Part shown: positions 7,543 to 64,000 of the stretch, one piece after another
How the letters are laid out: each line of letters starts with the position of its first letter
Position numbering within the stretch: position 1 is the first letter of the stretch
IMG/VR virus record: IMGVR_UViG_3300042398_000319
Location: 1-64,000 of that record
DNA length: 64,000 nucleotides
Origin: a virus
Strand: one strand, 5' to 3'
Notes under the pieces: generated by a model
Databases searched by the model: none
What the model saw: only the letters and a program-made list of their open reading frames with translations
What the model was told of the DNA's origin: nothing
Made by a program: the position numbers and the translations under genes

Positions 7543-7560
7543 ACCAGGGGACGCTAAAGA
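7543..7560 (+). promoter_or_regulatory. putative phage RNAP promoter, copy 1 (ACCAGGGGACGCTAAAGA)
   Basis: 18-bp motif found four times, always intergenic and on the same strand. Confidence 0.75.
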
Positions 7561-23774: not shown

Positions 23775-23804
23775 GGTCACCCTGTAAAAAGGGTGGCCTT
23801 TTTT
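23775..23804 (+). terminator. intrinsic terminator ending the tail module
   Basis: GGTCACCCT-gtaaaa-AGGGTGGCC followed by T6. Confidence 0.85.
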
Positions 23805-23809
23805 ATCAA

Positions 23810-23851
23810 AAAAAGTGAGAAAAATGACGTATCTATAATGAAGAAATATCA
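23810..23851 (+). promoter_or_regulatory. early promoter-like direct repeat, copy 1
   Basis: AAAAAGTGAGAAAAATGACGTATCTATAATGAAGAAATATCA, identical to 24016-24057; contains TATAAT. Confidence 0.7.
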
Positions 23852-24015: not shown

Positions 24016-24057
24016 AAAAAGTGAGAAAAATGACGTATCTATAATGAAGAAATATCA
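24016..24057 (+). promoter_or_regulatory. early promoter-like direct repeat, copy 2
   Basis: 42-bp exact copy of 23810-23851; similarity continues imperfectly for about 30 bp (AGTACTCAATTTA). Confidence 0.7.
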
Positions 24058-24101: not shown

Positions 24102-24365
24102 ATGTTAAAAGTATTAATTGCAGTGTCTATTGCATTATTGTCTAGTACCGCCATGGCATCTAAACATGAAAAGTATGTAGATATGTTAATAGAAGAAGGA
24201 GTTTTTAAAGTAGAAGAAAAGGCTAAAGTTATCTGTCAAATGGATGCTTTAGAGGCTTCATTCTATGCTTTCGATAAGGAATTAAAGAAAGCAAAAGACC
24301 CCTTTGCTGTTAAACCAGTAGATCCCTACAAGGTTATAGCAGTATGTAATAAGAAACACAACTGA
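24102..24365 (+). CDS. hypothetical exported protein
   Basis: Signal-peptide-like MLKVLIAVSIALLSSTAMA; AAGGAA RBS; the TGA stop lies in the hammerhead core. Confidence 0.7.
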   Translation: MLKVLIAVSIALLSSTAMASKHEKYVDMLIEEGVFKVEEKAKVICQMDALEASFYAFDKELKKAKDPFAVKPVDPYKVIAVCNKKHN

Positions 24366-24407
24366 TGAGTCTTTATGAGACGAAACCGCTGAGAAGCGGT
24401 CTTGTGT
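24356..24407 (+). ncRNA. type I hammerhead ribozyme
   Basis: Stem I ACACAA/UUGUGU; core CUGAUGA; stem II GUCU/AGAC; GAAA; stem III CCGCU-GAGA-AGCGG; GUC cleavage triplet, predicted cut after C24401. Confidence 0.92.
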
Positions 24408-24434
24408 ATTTTCCCCTTAACTATGGAGTTTAAA

Positions 24435-24923
24435 ATGAAAAAGTTCTTGATCGCAGTGTCTTTAAGTGTTGCCGCAGTATCCTCTTTTGCAGAAGAATCT
24501 TTCTGTAAACATAAAGAAGTACTTAAGGTAGGCACTTATGGTGCATTAGCAGGTGCAGCAGCATCTTTGTTAATCCCTGGTGCAGGTCCAGTAATTGCTA
24601 CAAGTATTCTTACAGGTACAGTAGTAACTACAGGTAATGTAGCAGTGTGTGCGTTTGATGAGAAGGATCGTAAGGACAAATTAGCTGCATTCAAAAAAGC
24701 TAACTCTGAACCTACATCTTTTGATAAAGCAGTGGCTAAGCCTGTAGAAGATCGTAGCATAACTGATAAAGCTGTAATCAGCCTTACTCAGGACTACGTC
24801 AATGCAGTTGTTAAGCCAGTAGAAGATCGTAGTATTAAAGAGCAAGCAGTTGTTACAATTTCACAAGGCTACACAAAAGCCCAAGAAAGTGTATCAAAAG
24901 CTTACAGTAACCTTACTAAATAA
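24435..24923 (+). CDS. hypothetical exported/membrane protein with glycine-zipper-like segment
   Basis: Signal-peptide-like MKKFLIAVSLSVAAVSSFA; GALAGAAA..PGAG; KPVEDRSI repeated twice; GGAG RBS before ATG 24435. Confidence 0.7.
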   Translation: MKKFLIAVSLSVAAVSSFAEESFCKHKEVLKVGTYGALAGAAASLLIPGAGPVIATSILTGTVVTTGNVAVCAFDEKDRKDKLAAFKKANSEPTSFDKAVAKPVEDRSITDKAVISLTQDYVNAVVKPVEDRSIKEQAVVTISQGYTKAQESVSKAYSNLTK

Positions 24924-28512: not shown

Positions 28513-28530
28513 ACCAGGGTACGCTAAAGC
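28513..28530 (+). promoter_or_regulatory. putative phage RNAP promoter, copy 2 (ACCAGGGTACGCTAAAGC)
   Basis: 16/18 match to the consensus; directly after the RNAP gene and before the replication module. Confidence 0.7.
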
Positions 28531-29865: not shown

Positions 29866-30131
29866 GTAACTTAAACCAACTTGCTAAAGATTACTGGAAT
29901 GATGAACTTGAATGTGAAGTAATTGAAGAGGGTGACTGGGTTAATGATTTCAAAGACTATTACTTTCGTATAGATATCATTAAGTATCAAGACAAATATT
30001 ATCGAATTAGTATGAAAAGAACTGGAAGTTATTATACTGAATACTTCTTCAATGAAGATAGCTTTGTAGCAGAAGAAGTAACTAAAGTTGAAAAAGTAGT
30101 AACAGTAACATCATGGGAACGTGTAAAATGA
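29862..30131 (+). CDS. hypothetical protein
   Basis: 89 aa, AGGAG RBS, overlapping neighbours. Confidence 0.7.
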   Translation: MSNLNQLAKDYWNDELECEVIEEGDWVNDFKDYYFRIDIIKYQDKYYRISMKRTGSYYTEYFFNEDSFVAEEVTKVEKVVTVTSWERVK

Positions 30132-30541
30132 AACAACGAACAATCTACCTTGCAGGTCCAATGGAACACGTATCGCTTGACGATGCAAAAGGTTGGCGTG
30201 ATATTGCTACTCAATTACTTAAGCAAGCAGATCAAAAAGTTCTTGATCCTACTCGTAGGGTTCATGAGTTTCAACCGAAGTACATGAAGAGAATCTTTGA
30301 ACTAGATCTTCGTGATATTCAAGAGTCAGACTTGATTCTTGTTAATTTAGACAATCCTAAAATTGCTAAACACGGTACTTCAATGGAAGTGTTTTATGCT
30401 TCTTATGTACTACGTAAACCAGTAATTGCATTTAAAGCGGATGCCTCTACTATTCATCCATTTTTTGAATCTTTAGTAACTGAATGGAGATCAACAGTAG
30501 ATAAAGCCTGTGACACTATTATCACGGAGTATATCGAGTAA
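30128..30541 (+). CDS. nucleoside 2-deoxyribosyltransferase-like protein
   Basis: IYLAGPM, DLRDIQESDLILV, GTSMEV and KPVI motifs. Confidence 0.8.
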   Translation: MKQRTIYLAGPMEHVSLDDAKGWRDIATQLLKQADQKVLDPTRRVHEFQPKYMKRIFELDLRDIQESDLILVNLDNPKIAKHGTSMEVFYASYVLRKPVIAFKADASTIHPFFESLVTEWRSTVDKACDTIITEYIE

Positions 30542-34186: not shown

Positions 34187-34674
34187 ATGTTTTCTTCTTA
34201 GACAAAGACCCTGCAGAATGTGCTAAGGGTCACTACGATACTCATGTAGTAAAGATGATTCTAGAGTCAGCTCAGTTATTGTCTACTGCTCATCACTTGT
34301 GTGGTGATGGTGGACCATATAAAGTTACTCACCAGAATCATCCTTCAGCTGTATGGGTTAGACAATCGGTGGCTCATTATAGTTGGTTGTATATTCTTAT
34401 GCTAGAGCTAGGTAAGGAATATACACACCGATTTGGTAAAAAACATAAGACAATCCGAGAACACAAGGACTCTTTGTTCTTTACACCAAGAGACATTAAA
34501 GCACTAGGGTGGCAAGACCCACCTTTAGCTATGCCCGAGCATTGTCAATTAGATAGTGCCGTTGAATCCTATAGAAATTATTATTTAACAGAAAAGATAA
34601 ATTTAATGAAATACACAAAGAGGAATGCCCCTTGGTGGATGCAAAAACAGATCGCTACGATTCCCTCTATTTAG
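34183..34674 (+). CDS. pyrimidine-dimer DNA glycosylase-like protein
   Basis: MNVFFLD..CA..H.D.HVVKMILESAQLLSTAH...HPSAVW...AMP...YRNYY. Confidence 0.7.
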   Translation: MNVFFLDKDPAECAKGHYDTHVVKMILESAQLLSTAHHLCGDGGPYKVTHQNHPSAVWVRQSVAHYSWLYILMLELGKEYTHRFGKKHKTIREHKDSLFFTPRDIKALGWQDPPLAMPEHCQLDSAVESYRNYYLTEKINLMKYTKRNAPWWMQKQIATIPSI

Positions 34675-35048
34675 ATCTAGCAAAAAGAATTGCTCTAATG
34701 TCCTATGCTGAGAAGCGTAAAGTTGGAGCAATTGCAGTAAAGAATAACAATATACTCAGTTTCGGGTTTAATGGGACACCTAAAGGCTTTCCTAATAAAT
34801 GCGAGAATGAGTATAATAAAACATTATCCTATGTAATTCATGCTGAAGCAAACCTTGTATCTAAGGCGGCTGCAGAAGGTTTGAGTTTAAAAGGATCAAC
34901 AGTATATGTAACAACTGCCCCTTGTGACAATTGTTCCTTATTACTTATCCAATCTGGTGTTGAGAGAGTTGTTTTCTCAGACAGATATAAAACAGATTCA
35001 GGTATTTTAACATTAATCCACAGTAATATAAGAGTACAACAAAAATGA
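34632..35048 (+). CDS. dCMP deaminase
   Basis: GFNGTP, HAEAN and PCDNC zinc motifs. Confidence 0.9.
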   Translation: MVDAKTDRYDSLYLDLAKRIALMSYAEKRKVGAIAVKNNNILSFGFNGTPKGFPNKCENEYNKTLSYVIHAEANLVSKAAAEGLSLKGSTVYVTTAPCDNCSLLLIQSGVERVVFSDRYKTDSGILTLIHSNIRVQQK

Positions 35049-41995: not shown

Positions 41996-42679
41996 ATGAG
42001 CAAACTATTCGGTTGCCAGTTCAACAAGTACTCAAGTGTGCTTAACGCTAAAGCTAAACCTAAATCGCCTGAAGCACCAGACTCCCCTAATCCACCTCAA
42101 CCTGTAACTCAGGAAGATAATGATGGGGGCTATTACTGGTTCGGTAAAAATATTATGCGTAATGGCGTAATGTATCTTATGGGAGAAATAGAAGACGATT
42201 CTGTACAGCCTATTATTATGGCTATTATGGAATATAACCTAATGGCTAAACAGGATCAACCAGATAAACTTGTATTGTTTATTAACAGTCCAGGTGGATT
42301 TGTTTCCTCAGCATACCATTTAATTGATACTATTAAACAGTCCAATATTCCAGTAGTTACTATTGGTACTGGTGAAGTAGCTTCAGCAGGTGTTATGTTG
42401 TTGATGTCAGGAAATAAGGGTATGCGCTTTATTACTGAAAATTGCTCTGTAATGTCACATCAATTCTCTCGTGGAGTTGTTGGTAAAGAACATGAGATAG
42501 CTGCAGCCTCAAAAGACTTTCATCTAGATTCGCTAAGAATGTTAAATCATTATCGCAAATGTACAGGTAAGTCTGTTACATATATTCGTAAGCATTTGTT
42601 ACAACAATCAGATTGTTTCTTCTCTCCAGATGAAGCAGTTACACATGGTATTGTAGATGAAGTAATTAAGAATCCGTAA
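41996..42679 (+). CDS. ClpP-like protease subunit
   Basis: INSPGG, VASAG (catalytic Ser), MSHQ and EAVTHGIVD motifs. Confidence 0.85.
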   Translation: MSKLFGCQFNKYSSVLNAKAKPKSPEAPDSPNPPQPVTQEDNDGGYYWFGKNIMRNGVMYLMGEIEDDSVQPIIMAIMEYNLMAKQDQPDKLVLFINSPGGFVSSAYHLIDTIKQSNIPVVTIGTGEVASAGVMLLMSGNKGMRFITENCSVMSHQFSRGVVGKEHEIAAASKDFHLDSLRMLNHYRKCTGKSVTYIRKHLLQQSDCFFSPDEAVTHGIVDEVIKNP

Positions 42680-43642: not shown

Positions 43643-43972
43643 ATGCCACGCCCTAAAAAGGTAACGATTGTTAAACCTGTTTGTTCCCCTGAATTAACAG
43701 AGTTAATAAGAAGACGAAGAGCACAAATGTTAATACATTCGTGTATCTATTATGAGCTAAATGAAAGTATAATCTCTGATCATCAGTGGCAAGCATGGGC
43801 TGATGAGCTACAACAACTACAAGAAAAACACCCAGATTGTTTAAAAATTGATTTTTACGACTGGGAATTTAGAGATTGGGATGGTGCTACTGGAGCACAC
43901 CTACCACATAGGAACCCTTGGGTTTTCCAGAAAGCAAATTATATTTTAAATCTTTCGAGAGAGAATAAATGA
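43643..43972 (+). CDS. stand-alone protein resembling the N-terminal domain of NAD-dependent DNA ligase
   Basis: IYYELNESIISDHQW...ELQQLQEKHP resembles the LigA YY..D.P.ISD.EYD..L..LE..HP segment. Confidence 0.5.
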   Translation: MPRPKKVTIVKPVCSPELTELIRRRRAQMLIHSCIYYELNESIISDHQWQAWADELQQLQEKHPDCLKIDFYDWEFRDWDGATGAHLPHRNPWVFQKANYILNLSRENK

Positions 43973-51874: not shown

Positions 51875-51892
51875 ACCAGGGGACGCTAAAGA
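51875..51892 (+). promoter_or_regulatory. putative phage RNAP promoter, copy 3
   Basis: Exact ACCAGGGGACGCTAAAGA upstream of the cell wall hydrolase gene. Confidence 0.75.
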
Positions 51893-52496: not shown

Positions 52497-52514
52497 ACCA
52501 GGGGACGCTAAAGA
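52497..52514 (+). promoter_or_regulatory. putative phage RNAP promoter, copy 4 (late module)
   Basis: Exact ACCAGGGGACGCTAAAGA, continuing GAGA as in copy 1; upstream of the packaging genes. Confidence 0.75.
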
Positions 52515-59605: not shown

Positions 59606-61228
59606 ATGGCAAACCTAACAACGACCCCATCAAAGGCTAAGACAAAGAGCCTAGGGGATCCAAATGCAGCATACGAGTCTATGCGCCCTCTCTGGGAAAA
59701 GGCCAGAGCTGTTCTTAATGGACAACAACATGCAAGAGCATACGATGATGTAATTGATACTGCAACATACAATAACTTGCTTTTGCCTTTCTCTCCAACA
59801 ATGACTGCACAACAGTATAACTTCTATCGTGCTGAAGGTGAGCTTCCTGGACTAACCGCACAATACGCTAAAGTTCTTGTTGGTGGATTGTTACGTAAAC
59901 AAGCGGCTATCGAACTTCCAGAGAATGTATTTCCTGAAGGAACTGAAGACTGGATTCGTACTTCTTTTGGTGCTGATGGTACTTCATTACATGGCTTCTT
60001 AGATGCGGCTATTTGGGAAGAGCTACAGTCATCAAGAGCTTGGTGTTTAGTAGACTATCCTACAGTTGCTAACCCAGATGCTCTCACTATGGAAGAGGCT
60101 AAGGCTTTGTCTCCATATGTAATGCTTATTCAAGCAGAGAACATTATTAACTGGCGTAGAGGTCAAGACCGTAATACAAACAAACAAGTATTAACAAGTT
60201 TACTTTTCCGCTACTACATGGAAGACTATTCTAAAAATGAATTCCACCCAGACTATGTAGATACTGTTACTCACTATCACTTAGATGAGTCAGGACTGCT
60301 TGTTGTAGATACCTACACACGAGACACTAATGAGTCTGTAAGCGTTATTAATGGTAACGTTACATCTAAGTATCAAACAGACAATGCTAATGCAGCATGG
60401 GTAAAGACACGTACAGAAGTACCTTTGATGAACGGTGAGAGAATGAACTTTATTCCTGCCTATCCATTGAATGGTCAAATTGACCCTGTTGAGCCAATCC
60501 TGCAATCACTGATTGATCGTGAAATTGCTCTGTACAACAAGGTTAGTCGTCGTAATCACTTGCTCTATGGTGCCGCTACTTACACTCCAGTAGTCATGTC
60601 AGATATGACTGATGAAGAGTTTGAAAACATTGTAGAGGCAGGTTTAGGTTCATGGATTAAACTCCGTGCTGGAGACGATATTAAAGCCTTAGATACACCA
60701 ACAGGTGCATTAAAGGATATGGAAAAGAGTATCGAAGCTACTATTGAAGAAATGGCTCGTATGGGCATTCGGATGCTTTCACCAGAGGGTTCTTCAGGTG
60801 AGTCAGGCGTAAGTCTAGAAATCCGTAATGCTGCTCAGACTGCTCAACTAGGTATGCTTAATACACGTATCTCAGAAACAATGAGACAGATCATTGCAGT
60901 AATGCTTAAGTGGAAATATAATATCGAAGTTCTTCCAACAGATATTAAGTTCACATTAAGCGCTGACTTTAACCCTACTCCTGTAGGCGCAGACTGGATG
61001 AGACTAGTTACAGAATGGTACCAGCAAGGTATTATTCCACGTTCTACATTTATCTCTATTGCTAAATTCAATGATGTACTCCCAGCTGAATACAACGATG
61101 AAGAAGGTGTTGCAGAGATCCAGAGTGATCCTCTTGTAGACACTAAGGCAATGAGTATAGACTCTTCAATTGCGGATACAGATAATATGCGCCCTAATAA
61201 TAGGGATGATGATAACGATAACGTATAA
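59606..61228 (+). CDS. portal protein
   Basis: 540 aa; LVDYP, PY...AENIINW, ESG.SL and SADF segments typical of DUF4055-like portals; between TerL and the MuF gene. Confidence 0.8.
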   Translation: MANLTTTPSKAKTKSLGDPNAAYESMRPLWEKARAVLNGQQHARAYDDVIDTATYNNLLLPFSPTMTAQQYNFYRAEGELPGLTAQYAKVLVGGLLRKQAAIELPENVFPEGTEDWIRTSFGADGTSLHGFLDAAIWEELQSSRAWCLVDYPTVANPDALTMEEAKALSPYVMLIQAENIINWRRGQDRNTNKQVLTSLLFRYYMEDYSKNEFHPDYVDTVTHYHLDESGLLVVDTYTRDTNESVSVINGNVTSKYQTDNANAAWVKTRTEVPLMNGERMNFIPAYPLNGQIDPVEPILQSLIDREIALYNKVSRRNHLLYGAATYTPVVMSDMTDEEFENIVEAGLGSWIKLRAGDDIKALDTPTGALKDMEKSIEATIEEMARMGIRMLSPEGSSGESGVSLEIRNAAQTAQLGMLNTRISETMRQIIAVMLKWKYNIEVLPTDIKFTLSADFNPTPVGADWMRLVTEWYQQGIIPRSTFISIAKFNDVLPAEYNDEEGVAEIQSDPLVDTKAMSIDSSIADTDNMRPNNRDDDNDNV

Positions 61229-61274: not shown

Positions 61275-64000
61275 ATGCCAACACCAATTAATACAGATCT
61301 TTATGATCGTATTATACAACACTTGGCTGATACAAGGCTATACGAGGCGGAAACCTCTACTAATGTAAGTAGGGGCATCCGTAGACATCAAAAAAGACTT
61401 AGAGATTTACTAAAGTCTAATATTAAAGCTGATGTTAAACCAGAAGTTACAAGGGCTACTCGTGAATTACACATGATAGTTGATAACTCTGTTACTGATT
61501 ATGCAGGAGCAGCAGTTAACTTCCATTCTAATAACCTAGATAGAAGTGCAGGTAACTTTTTTAGGGTTCAAAGGCCTAGAGCTAGTGACGCTATTCCTAA
61601 ACTAATTGGACCTAATATCAGTGCCTCTAAAACACTTAGAGAACATTTTGATACAATTGGTACAGCTGAATTAGCTAGAATTGATGGAAAAATTAAGTTA
61701 GGCCTGGCTGATGGTAAATCAACTAAACAAATCTTGGATGAGGTAATTCGTACTACTGCGCTTACTGAAGTACAGGCTAAGGTTCTTGTTAGAACAGCAA
61801 TTACCAATACTCAATCTACTGCAATGAATTTAGTAATGAGTCGTAATGAAGAGCTATTAATTGGTTACAGATTTACTGCTGTTCTTGACAATCGTACTTC
61901 TCCTATTTGTGCACACCACGATGGTCAGGTATATAAGATTAATGATTTAAGGTTTAGGCCCCCACTTCACTGGAACTGTCGTAGTTCTATGGTTCCTATT
62001 CTAAAGAATAAAGAACAACTACTAAAATCTCTTGAAGAGAAAGAGGATAGTAGACTTAAAGCTAATAAATTAAAAGAAACAAATCCAACATTACTTGATG
62101 GTAACCCACCTCCAGTAGAAACCTATAGTATTTGGCTTAAACGTCAACCTATGGCTGTGCAGGTTAAGCATTTAGGCAGTGAAGAAAAAGCTGGACTTTT
62201 ACAGAAAGGTGCACTAGAGGTAAAGGCGTTTACTACTGCTAAAGGTCAACAGCTAAGTATTGCGGCATTAAGAAAGCTTGATAATGCAAGAACACTGTGG
62301 TTTCCAACTAGACAAACTGCTGTATCTAAGGCTGAAGAAAACTTATTTCAGCTTAATGTAGCTAGACCTAATGAGTTACTACGAAATACAGAGGCTCAAA
62401 GACAATTAAGAGAGATGTATATAGCTGACTCAGATAATGTGGCTCAAGCTATTTCTTTGACAGACTATCGTGGTACTACACTAGCAGGTAAACGATCAGT
62501 TAGGATTAGATCTAACAATGAGTTTGATGAACGTAACAATAGCTTTGATCCATTTACTGGTGAACAAAGTTCTACACTATTGTATGATCCTGACTATATT
62601 ACACTTCAAGAACGACTTGACTTTGTTAAGAACTCAAAGGCTTTATCACAAGATCAAAAAGTTTGGATCAGAGACTTTGTGGAGAGTCTTGATGAGTCAG
62701 TATCTGTTAATCAACAAACCGCTGTAGCTGAAAATCTTCGTGTTGTGTTTGAACGATACAACAATAACAAAGAACCTTGGGTTAACTTCATGAACGTTGT
62801 TCGTGGAGAGATGCAGTACTCTGTTGTTAATACTAGTCGTATTCTTGATCGTAGGTCTAGAGCTAGATCTCAACAGTTTGACTCTTATGGGGTTGCCGGT
62901 GAGCCAGCTAAAGTCCAGATCTTTGGTAGATACTACACGTTTGATGAAATTACAAATAACACACTGTTAAACCAAAGATATAAAGAATCATGGGAAACTC
63001 GTCTTGGTAGACCTCTAGCCCGTAGACTTCTTTACACTGGACGTACCCCTCTTTATACATGGTTTAGAGGTCCGCTAACTAGGGATACAAAATCTTTTAG
63101 TAAACGACTTGAAACATTTGTCAGAGAAGAAATTCCGGGTGGAGCTTTATGGCTAGATCGTAATAAACCAAAAGAAGGTTTAATTGCACAGTTTATTAGA
63201 GAAAAGAAAGAAAGCTGGAGAAGAATTCTAGATTTAGAATTTTTGTACAAAGGTAATAAACAAAGTTATCTACAGCAATATATTGAAAACAAAACAAATG
63301 ATAAGTTTATTGTTGATGCATTATCAAGGGTAATTAGCGTTGTAGCAGATGGTAAATCTACTGACTATGACACATTGGCAATTAACATTGGTAAAGAACT
63401 AAGAAGCAACTGGAAGTATCCAGAGTTTCCTTTCTTTAAATCAACATTAAAAGATTATCATGAGGATGGCTCACAAATTTTAACTGCGTTAAGAGACTCA
63501 GGTTATATTAGAGTAGTTAAAAGAGGTAAGACGAGAAGATCAGTTGTAGACCTAGAGACAGGTCGTGCAAGTGGTCCGTGGAGGGATACTATCAGCCGTG
63601 AAGTTCAAATTCTAAATAAAGATATGCTTGATCTTCAACGGGTTAATAGGTCATTGATTGTAAGTCAACGTATAGGTATTGTAAACGATAGAGACCGACT
63701 CTTTGTTAGGCCTGGACAGAAAACTTATTTTGATGCTAGAGGTAGAAATACTGGGATCCCTATTATTACCCGTAGAGCTAATGCTAACTATGATAAGATA
63801 CTAATTGATAATGATTTTGCTAATATGCTTAATCATACTATGGCTACTAAATACGAAGTTGATAATGAATATGCTGGATTCATGGAAGATGTTGTGCGCT
63901 TTAGAGATCCCCGTGGGAATGTAAAGAAGTATGATGACTTAAATGACTTTAGAAAACTTATTTTAACTCGTGGTGATCAAGGCTATAGTTTTATACAAAC
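61275..64000 (+). CDS. MuF/SPP1-gp7-like head morphogenesis protein with large C-terminal extension, probably a T7-like RNA polymerase (partial, runs off window)
   Basis: AAGGAG RBS, open frame of at least 908 codons; MuF core RFTAVLDNRTSPICAHHDG...PPLHWNCRS; distal part resembles the RNAP N-terminal domain. Not in the ORF track. Confidence 0.85.
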   Translation, partial: MPTPINTDLYDRIIQHLADTRLYEAETSTNVSRGIRRHQKRLRDLLKSNIKADVKPEVTRATRELHMIVDNSVTDYAGAAVNFHSNNLDRSAGNFFRVQRPRASDAIPKLIGPNISASKTLREHFDTIGTAELARIDGKIKLGLADGKSTKQILDEVIRTTALTEVQAKVLVRTAITNTQSTAMNLVMSRNEELLIGYRFTAVLDNRTSPICAHHDGQVYKINDLRFRPPLHWNCRSSMVPILKNKEQLLKSLEEKEDSRLKANKLKETNPTLLDGNPPPVETYSIWLKRQPMAVQVKHLGSEEKAGLLQKGALEVKAFTTAKGQQLSIAALRKLDNARTLWFPTRQTAVSKAEENLFQLNVARPNELLRNTEAQRQLREMYIADSDNVAQAISLTDYRGTTLAGKRSVRIRSNNEFDERNNSFDPFTGEQSSTLLYDPDYITLQERLDFVKNSKALSQDQKVWIRDFVESLDESVSVNQQTAVAENLRVVFERYNNNKEPWVNFMNVVRGEMQYSVVNTSRILDRRSRARSQQFDSYGVAGEPAKVQIFGRYYTFDEITNNTLLNQRYKESWETRLGRPLARRLLYTGRTPLYTWFRGPLTRDTKSFSKRLETFVREEIPGGALWLDRNKPKEGLIAQFIREKKESWRRILDLEFLYKGNKQSYLQQYIENKTNDKFIVDALSRVISVVADGKSTDYDTLAINIGKELRSNWKYPEFPFFKSTLKDYHEDGSQILTALRDSGYIRVVKRGKTRRSVVDLETGRASGPWRDTISREVQILNKDMLDLQRVNRSLIVSQRIGIVNDRDRLFVRPGQKTYFDARGRNTGIPIITRRANANYDKILIDNDFANMLNHTMATKYEVDNEYAGFMEDVVRFRDPRGNVKKYDDLNDFRKLILTRGDQGYSFIQ

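Follow-up and report, generated by a model that had tools for sequence, protein, structure and literature searches.

A MuF head protein fused to a complete T7-type RNA polymerase in a lake-water phage

Virion-carried RNA polymerases (RNAPs) are known from N4-like phages, which use a giant protein of 3500 amino acids (aa), from crAss-like phages and P23-45, which use two-barrel enzymes, and from jumbo phages, which use multisubunit enzymes. The gene described here belongs to a lake-water long-tailed phage, IMG/VR record IMGVR_UViG_3300042398_000319 (76,946 bases), of which bases 1-64000 form the window, i.e. the whole stretch of DNA that was analysed. It encodes a single 1473-aa polypeptide consisting of a MuF head module (residues 1-340), a helical linker (341-553) and a complete T7-type single-subunit RNAP (approximately 554-1473). 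The same phage encodes a second, free T7-type RNAP, and the fused enzyme is probably the one that is carried into the next host cell.

A survey of polyvalent and MuF-fused proteins by Iyer et al. (2017; PMC5512222) reports virion RNAP modules only in N4-like phages, always fused to a metallopeptidase (zincin), and describes MuF as a virion-associated domain to which effectors for delivery have been joined many times. A MuF-fused T7-type RNAP is described neither in that paper nor in the literature found by full-text search. The N4 protein gp50 is similar to the lake phage protein in that a T7-family polymerase lies within a larger virion protein, which is packaged and injected for the early genes and is followed by a second T7-like phage RNAP (RNAPII) (PMC5512222). 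It differs in its length of approximately 3500 aa, its zincin peptidase, its restriction to short-tailed N4-like phages and its lack of MuF, whereas the protein described here has 1473 aa, a MuF carrier and a long-tailed phage as its source. Pfam finds only Phage_Mu_F and RNA_pol in these 1473 aa, the genome has a long-tail module, and the predicted polymerase fold matches N4 at Z 18.9 versus 32.9 for T7, all of which place the fusion outside the gp50 family. N4-type structures in the PDB (2po4, 9pnt) are matched at Z 16-19 in VIA-align. The fusion would work like gp50 while standing outside its family; by function, the N4 relay and phage P23-45 are its nearest counterparts. N4 promoters are DNA hairpins, whereas the element proposed below for the fused enzyme (class E) is a linear sequence of 27 nucleotides (nt).

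In the Thermus phage P23-45, the virion RNAP gp96 is fused to the tape-measure protein and transcribes the pre-early genes, one of which encodes the non-virion RNAP gp64 (Chaban et al., 2024; PMC10770324). Both phages are long-tailed, fuse a structural protein to an RNAP, have a second non-virion RNAP and have two DNA motifs for the two enzymes (PMC10770324). The RNAPs of P23-45, however, are two-barrel enzymes homologous to cellular ones and use the tape-measure protein as carrier, whereas both enzymes of the lake phage are T7-type and the carrier is MuF. With this fold and this carrier, the fusion is not of the P23-45 type and resembles it in function only.

MuF-effector fusions (SPP1 gp7, Mu gpF) have the same arrangement of an N-terminal MuF and a C-terminal enzyme cargo, are encoded among late virion genes and are predicted to be delivered with the DNA (PMC5512222). 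Their described cargoes are toxins, RNases, ADP-ribosyltransferases and alarmone synthetases, whereas the cargo here is a T7-type RNAP. The RNAPs of T7 and SP6 have the catalytic motifs in common with the fused enzyme and, from the N-terminal domain through to the C-terminus, its fold as well; their short promoters are repeated before operons, as is the class L element described below. They differ in being free, early-expressed and non-virion, and identity in structural alignment is only 14-18%. The fusion ends in DWYGIGP; T7 RNAP ends in FAFA. The jumbo phages AR9/PBS2 have DNA of the deoxyuridine (dU) kind and two polymerases of their own, one virion and one non-virion (PMC5312081), but these enzymes are multisubunit and of an unrelated fold. 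Substitution of deoxythymidine by dU is known for the DNA of the relatives DSS3_VP1 and DSS3_PM1 (PMC8323127) and is not claimed for the lake phage, for a reason given below.

Domain structure of the fused protein

The ATG that opens the frame lies 47 nt past the portal gene, and 908 codons follow without a stop up to the end of the window, as the first-pass annotation of this DNA had stated in reporting a frame of at least that length behind the portal. An early stop beyond 64000 would have spoken against a polymerase; in the full record the frame continues to 65696. The coordinates of the gene and its modules are collected in Table 1.

The N-terminal module is of the MuF type. Pfam places the Phage_Mu_F core (PF04233) at residues 137-239 (61683-61991) above the curated cut-off, with E values of 5e-12 for the 908-aa query and 7e-12 for the full protein (46-51 bits versus a cut-off of 29.6). 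This agrees with the core proposed earlier at about 61870-61985, a range that also holds the invariant HWNCRS at residues 232-237 (61968-61985). Residues C212, P230, H232, C235, R236 and S237 are invariant across the family. The phrog_241 profile 'head morphogenesis' is matched at 1e-51 over residues 4-453 of the full protein and at 5e-52 by the in-window 908 aa. A structural model of the N-terminal 560 aa folds confidently, with a predicted local distance difference test (pLDDT) score of 86.7, and in BFVD it resembles the predicted folds of MuF proteins, minor capsid proteins and head morphogenesis proteins from many phages, including the MuF-ADP-ribosyltransferase fusion of Xanthomonas phage Xp12. 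Foldseek of the same model against the PDB gave no solved-structure match, and a sequence-based family-profile search likewise found no solved MuF structure. The linker folds confidently except at residues 344-354 and is also without a match to a solved structure. A genome-wide Pfam scan finds no other MuF domain in this phage. The gene has the position typical of MuF genes, directly downstream of the portal gene, in an order that is common to DSS3_VP1 and 33 related loci, and a MuF with a C-terminal enzyme domain among late virion genes corresponds to the MuF-cargo (polyvalent) pattern as defined in PMC5512222.

The C-terminal module contains the full set of single-subunit RNAP motifs. The first-pass annotation had predicted a DxRGR motif 15-25 codons past position 64000, followed by motifs A, B and C; DGRGR occupies residues 927-931 and lies 18-22 codons beyond the window. 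Further along the protein come ENDASSSGAQ (motif A, D1070), KAAKAQNMVSFYGAG (motif B, K1135, K1138, Y1146 and G1147) and IHDAFF (motif C, H1387 and D1388), as predicted. In phmmer alignments DGRGR (D927-R931) falls on D421-R425 of T7 RNAP and H1387-D1388 on H811-D812. Residues R931, D1070, K1135, K1138, Y1146, G1147, D1365 and D1388 are invariant in 27-32 relatives, down to 18-25% identity. Pfam RNA_pol (PF00940) is matched over residues 1054-1434 with 27.1 bits (cut-off 22), or 29.5 bits in the genome scan, and phrog_414 'RNA polymerase' at 6e-21. T7 RNAP in the PDB is found at 1e-4 with the single sequence and at 1e-16 with a family profile, which also finds yeast mitochondrial RNAP (4e-9) and N4 RNAPII (7e-5).

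The predicted structure is consistent with these matches. An AlphaFold2 model of residues 340-1473 has a mean pLDDT of 83.6 and a predicted template modelling score of 0.77, and T7 RNAP chains are its best Foldseek matches in the PDB (E 1e-19). VIA-align superposes this predicted model on T7 RNAP with Z 32.9 and a root-mean-square deviation of 3.5 A over 528 residues, model residues 221-1132 corresponding to T7 residues 32-882. Because the alignment spans T7 residues 32-882, the polymerase module is taken to comprise approximately residues 554-1473 and to include a T7-type N-terminal domain; the in-window part, residues 554-908, corresponds to T7 RNAP from about residue 30 to just before DxRGR. 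The structural match to a single-subunit RNAP that had been anticipated is thus found. Mitochondrial RNAPs are matched at Z 27-30 and the N4 mini-vRNAP at 18.9. N4 had been cited earlier as the known case of an injected RNAP; by relative scores (Z 33 versus 19) the enzyme appears much nearer to the T7 and mitochondrial RNAPs, and its kind is corrected to T7/mitochondrial-like, not N4-like. From its motifs, the polymerase half is complete, T7-type and apparently active. Its C-terminal part is 59% identical to that of DSS3_PM1, while portal and free RNAP are 46% and 50% identical to those of DSS3_VP1, which puts this part with the best-conserved proteins of the lineage.

That the polymerase half is a degenerate, inactive structural cargo, or the fusion an assembly or frameshift artefact, might be read from the 27-29 bits for RNA_pol and the weak BLASTP match to the phage's own RNAP (E 3e-4), but it is contradicted by the data and has a negligible probability: no catalytic residue varies within the family, the model can be superposed on T7 RNAP along its whole length, the C-terminal part is highly conserved (59% to DSS3_PM1), and the gene is one frame in all 41 loci examined and in the cultured phages, with no indels in independent samples.

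The free polymerase, conservation and relatives

A genome-wide scan finds exactly two polymerase domains, one free and one fused, and one MuF domain, so that the phage does have two single-subunit polymerases, as had been proposed. The homology of the two enzymes became apparent only in a profile-profile comparison. When the 908 in-window aa were compared with the free RNAP by pairwise BLASTP, the best E value was 0.54, and none of the four colinear blocks on which the first-pass annotation had based the similarity was reported; the E value of 3e-4 mentioned above comes from another pairwise comparison in this analysis. Alignment of the fusion family to the free-RNAP family with hhalign, by comparison, gives a probability of 98.2% and an E value of 3.8e-14 over 620 columns. 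All four blocks are recovered in the same register (T700 with D68 in the IGK/IGR block, G732 with G94, T826-G827 with N167-G168, and F848 onward with L191 onward), whereas the 'QG' at the end of the window does not align with the QG of the free RNAP and is a chance resemblance. The start of the similarity, earlier put at about 63360, has to be moved upstream, as the polymerase fold begins at about residue 554 (window 62934).

The fusion is conserved over a wide range of phages. A search with the polymerase part returned 302 proteins of at least 810 aa, nearly all of 1450-1600 aa; most of the 120 listed have both Pfam domains, and among the matches listed the named relatives are labelled only 'SPP1 gp7 family head morphogenesis protein'. 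In a library clustered at 50% identity, the polymerase starts at residues 610-680 in every full-length relative (1400-2070 aa), and four distant relatives of 23-26% identity still have MuF. The fusion is present in at least 557 IMG/VR contigs. It forms a single unbroken frame in 41 of the 41 loci with enough upstream DNA, of which 39 are complete (1451-1498 aa) and two are ended by the contig end; in these loci the MuF motif HxNCR is kept in 40, DxRGR in 41 and IHD[AS]F in 40. Contigs from independent lake-water DNA and RNA libraries span the gene and the MuF-polymerase boundary with no indels and no joints. Two metatranscriptome libraries hold the gene, an occurrence that is not counted as proof of transcription. 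Megablast of the fusion gene against the phage collection gave no match, and a viral-contig scan with the distant relative P0188 found no relative.

Among deposited phages, full-length matches are limited to the roseophages DSS3_VP1 and DSS3_PM1 (Naomviridae), at 47.5% identity, for both of which the annotation reads 'head morphogenesis' or 'minor head protein-like'. The pair of a free and a fused RNAP is also present in DSS3_VP1 and in each of three long metagenomic relatives. The lake phage and DSS3_VP1 also have in common the free RNAP (50%), a T7-like DNA polymerase, a primase-helicase, a ribonucleotide reductase, the portal and capsid genes and a dCMP-deaminase-family enzyme, which makes deoxyuridine triphosphate in DSS3_VP1. 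In a distant relative, EBPR siphovirus 1 (JF412302.1 gp47-gp49, L088 6040-11413), the fusion is split just before motif A into ORFs of 1052 aa and 431 aa by an HNH endonuclease gene, which looks like the insertion of a homing endonuclease or an intron into a conserved gene.

Some relatives depart from the usual length. P0131 (1821 aa), P0138 (1890 aa) and P0144 (2073 aa) are longer fusions, and in P0131 and P0144 the polymerase match falls into two to three stretches. Their polymerases may hold insertions (inteins or extra domains), and Pfam on P0144 finds only MuF and RNA_pol. P0231, P0233, P0236 and approximately ten others have 520-600 aa, match Pfam RNA_pol at 1e-12 to 1e-21 and match only the motif A-B region of the query; these may form a family of unusually small single-subunit RNAPs.

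Promoter-like elements and genome context

Two classes of short conserved elements are found in the genome (Table 1). Class E has the 27-nt pattern AAGTGAGAAAA-N-T-N-A-N-G-N-ATCTATAAT with 23 specified bases. Exactly two copies are present in the genome, inside a 42-nt perfect repeat (23810-23851 and 24016-24057) that heads the early region, 2.3-2.5 kilobases (kb) before the free RNAP gene. Marine DSS3_VP1 has the same class E in the same place and in two copies, though its proteins are only 35-58% identical. The 23 specified bases occur exactly in 62 viral contigs, and of the 32 loci whose contigs extend at least 3 kb further, 30 have a free-RNAP gene in the same orientation 1-7 kb downstream. 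This pairing is kept even where the free RNAP is only 36-38% identical. The 11 specified bases upstream of the end that contains the TATAAT do not differ between phages with free RNAPs of 36-50% identity. Class E is a candidate for the promoter that the capsid-borne polymerase uses. As a sigma-70 promoter class E fits poorly, although the host RNAP may still read it: no -35 element is conserved upstream of the TATAAT, no TTGACA-like hexamer lies 16-18 nt before it, and the sole match of a promoter scan, ATGACG-17-TATCAT (9 of 12 bases), is not conserved in DSS3_VP1.

Class L has the T7/SP6-like consensus ACC(A/G)GGG(G/T)ACGCTAAAG and occurs in five intergenic copies on the plus strand, versus 0 expected by chance. 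The copies precede the genes for tail, replication and cell-wall hydrolase and the packaging/head operon, and the copy in the tail module is kept at the equivalent site in eight close relatives. A related sequence, ATAGG(G/T)(T/G)(G/A)CG(T/C)TAAAGAG, is present at least 12 times in DSS3_VP1 and resembles the SP6 promoter, a lead and not a test. Class L is probably the promoter of the free RNAP.

Table 1. Positions of the fused gene, its modules and the associated elements (window coordinates unless marked genome).
Feature	Position	Strand	Remarks
MuF-RNAP fusion gene	genome 61275-65696	+	4422 nt, 1473 aa; window holds the first 2726 nt (61275..64000)
MuF/SPP1-gp7-type minor head module	61275..62294	+	aa 1-340; Pfam, phrog_241 and BFVD fold matches
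Helical linker domain	62295..62933	+	aa 341-553; between MuF and polymerase
RNAP N-terminal (promoter-binding-type) domain	62934..64000	+	aa 554-908; VIA-align and hhalign; includes the four colinear blocks
DGRGR	genome 64053-64067		beyond window
Motif A, D1070	genome 64482-64484		beyond window
Motif B, K1138-G1147	genome 64686-64715		beyond window
Motif C, H1387-D1388	genome 65433-65438		beyond window
Stop codon	genome 65694-65696		beyond window
Portal gene	59606..61228	+	immediately upstream of the fusion; same neighbour in 33 loci and DSS3_VP1
Free T7-type RNAP, 733 aa	26307..28508	+	Pfam RNA_pol 4e-82; 50% identity to DSS3_VP1 gp080
Class E copy 1, AAGTGAGAAAAATGACGTATCTATAAT	23813..23839	+	directly after terminator 23775-23798, which closes the tail module
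Class E copy 2, identical	24019..24045	+	about 60 nt before the ORF starting at 24102
Class L, ACCAGGGGACGCTAAAGA	52497..52514	+	heads the late operon with terminase, PhoH, portal and MuF-RNAP gene
Class L, 2 mismatches	28513..28530	+	directly after the free RNAP gene, before the replication genes
Class L, further copies	7543-7560; 51875-51892; genome 69418 (L002 ~8418)	+	intergenic

Around the fusion, the gene order is portal, fusion, a 231-aa ORF without a family match and the major capsid protein, as in DSS3_VP1. The late operon that holds the fusion also holds terminase, PhoH and portal, and elsewhere the genome encodes a 2056-aa tape-measure protein and a long-tail module. A 107-bp 'direct terminal repeat' (genome 1-107 and 76840-76946) was considered as a physical end and rejected: it is an exact overlap inside the 3' end of the tape-measure gene, i.e. 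a circular-assembly overlap. A dCMP-deaminase-family protein (window 34632-35048) shares 37% identity with the DSS3_VP1 dCTP deaminase, and a nucleoside 2-deoxyribosyltransferase-like protein (window 30113-30541) is encoded as well.

Several features of the genome lie outside these subjects. A tandem 75-nt repeat of 71% identity (window 24726-24872) lies inside a small early ORF (24402-24923) with a signal-peptide-like N-terminus, and the neighbouring ORF at 24102 begins with a similar N-terminus. A ClpP-type protease gene (window 41996-42679) is located among the replication and metabolism genes, well away from those for the head. A 109-aa ORF (window 43643-43972) corresponds to the N-terminal NAD-binding domain of DNA ligase alone.

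Proposed use of the two polymerases and its alternatives

SPP1 gp7 is known to dock at the portal. The reading preferred here, which has a fairly good chance of being correct, is that the fusion is a MuF-docked, capsid-carried T7-type RNAP that is delivered to start early transcription and to express the free RNAP. From the position of its class L element at 52497, the fusion would be made late, with the terminase, portal and capsid genes. By homology, MuF, the only one in the genome, would dock the protein at the portal inside the procapsid, so that a few copies would be packaged with the DNA. At the next infection the protein would exit through the tail with the genome and would start transcription at the two tandem class E elements, giving early messages that include the one for the free 733-aa RNAP. 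As the placement of the motifs suggests, the free RNAP would then read class L before the replication, lysis, packaging/head and tail operons. A carried polymerase might, speculatively, let a phage start on dU-DNA that is poorly read by the host RNAP. The suggestion in the first-pass annotation that MuF may serve as a packaging and delivery tag, with injection and host-independent early transcription, has become stronger because the fusion is conserved, lies in the late operon after the portal and is matched by a conserved early element upstream of the free RNAP gene.

A more far-reaching version can be put forward tentatively, at somewhat less than an even chance. The fused enzyme alone would read class E on the incoming genome, which is dU-substituted in at least part of the lineage, and would switch on the free RNAP, so that the Naomviridae-like group of aquatic long-tailed phages would transcribe its genes through a cascade of two single-subunit polymerases of its own, without the host RNAP. 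In that case virion-borne transcription would have a third solution, of independent origin and much more compact, and two new orthogonal pairs of polymerase and promoter would become available.

Several points weigh against delivery and an early role. Class E ends in a perfect TATAAT, so that the host sigma-70 RNAP is a possible reader of it, and which polymerase reads which class is assigned purely by logic. A folded polymerase module of approximately 920 aa would need unfolding to pass a long tail tube, and the polypeptide could be cleaved and the polymerase freed in the producing cell. To our knowledge, ejection of MuF proteins is largely deduced in the literature. The partial record of EBPR siphovirus 1 shows the fused enzyme only, with no free RNAP found in it, and the two-polymerase relay may therefore not be universal. 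Because the 107-bp repeat is an assembly overlap and no physical end, class E cannot be claimed to be the first part of the DNA to enter the cell. The link to deoxyuridine is weak, in that a deaminase homologue is present but no homologue of the dTMP phosphatase of DSS3_VP1 (HD/YfbR type) was found among the scanned ORFs, and for this reason dU-DNA is not claimed for the lake phage. Two papers on DSS3_VP1, one that described the phage and its replacement of dT by dU (PMC8323127) and an enzymology paper of 2025 (PMC12697855), report no virion proteomics and mention no RNA polymerase.

The first alternative keeps the fusion in the producing cell, where it would be active as a late or packaging-coupled transcriptase or would be cleaved from MuF before assembly, while the host RNAP starts the infection at class E. 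Its setting in the late operon suits such a role, but a late-made enzyme that is tied to the only head-docking module of the genome would be drawn into proheads, and late in infection a second polymerase of the same type would be superfluous. The T7 polymerase gene is itself expressed by the host RNAP, and E. coli RNAP acts at T7 early promoters. Although the perfect TATAAT of class E would fit a start of this kind, the element is unlike a sigma-70 promoter, with 11 bases upstream of the TATAAT end identical across phages and no -35. The lack of virion proteomics in the DSS3_VP1 papers is compatible with an enzyme that stays behind; the preservation of the intact fusion in hundreds of genomes argues against cleavage or a purely local role. 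On balance, activity confined to the producing cell is unlikely.

The second alternative accepts that the protein is packaged and ejected but assigns it a mainly mechanical task, in which DNA is pulled in by transcription or the DNA end is piloted and early messages are secondary. T7 and N4 are known to draw their genomes into the cell by transcription, while long-tailed phages generally deliver their DNA without transcription. By analogy with SPP1 gp7, the enzyme would sit at the portal, where the last-packaged and first-ejected DNA end lies, but the 107-bp repeat gives no genome end or entry polarity from which such a task could be read. A mechanical task is also compatible with capsid carriage and early transcription and does not exclude them; as the main job of the protein it is given a low probability, below that of activity in the producing cell.

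In the literature found, no T7-type RNAP has been described as a MuF cargo, so that a known pattern is found with a new cargo. If the preferred reading of a capsid-carried, delivered enzyme is true, linking a T7-type enzyme to a common MuF docking domain would open a novel and highly economical way to virion-borne transcription. The design is widespread: two roseophages in culture and at least 557 viral contigs have it, all under the plain label 'head morphogenesis protein'. The two short conserved promoter classes could be paired with the two compact polymerases as orthogonal expression tools. DSS3_VP1, grown on Ruegeria pomeroyi, provides an available laboratory system for testing the question, and a carried polymerase offers a possible explanation for how the dU-DNA Naomviridae begin infection.

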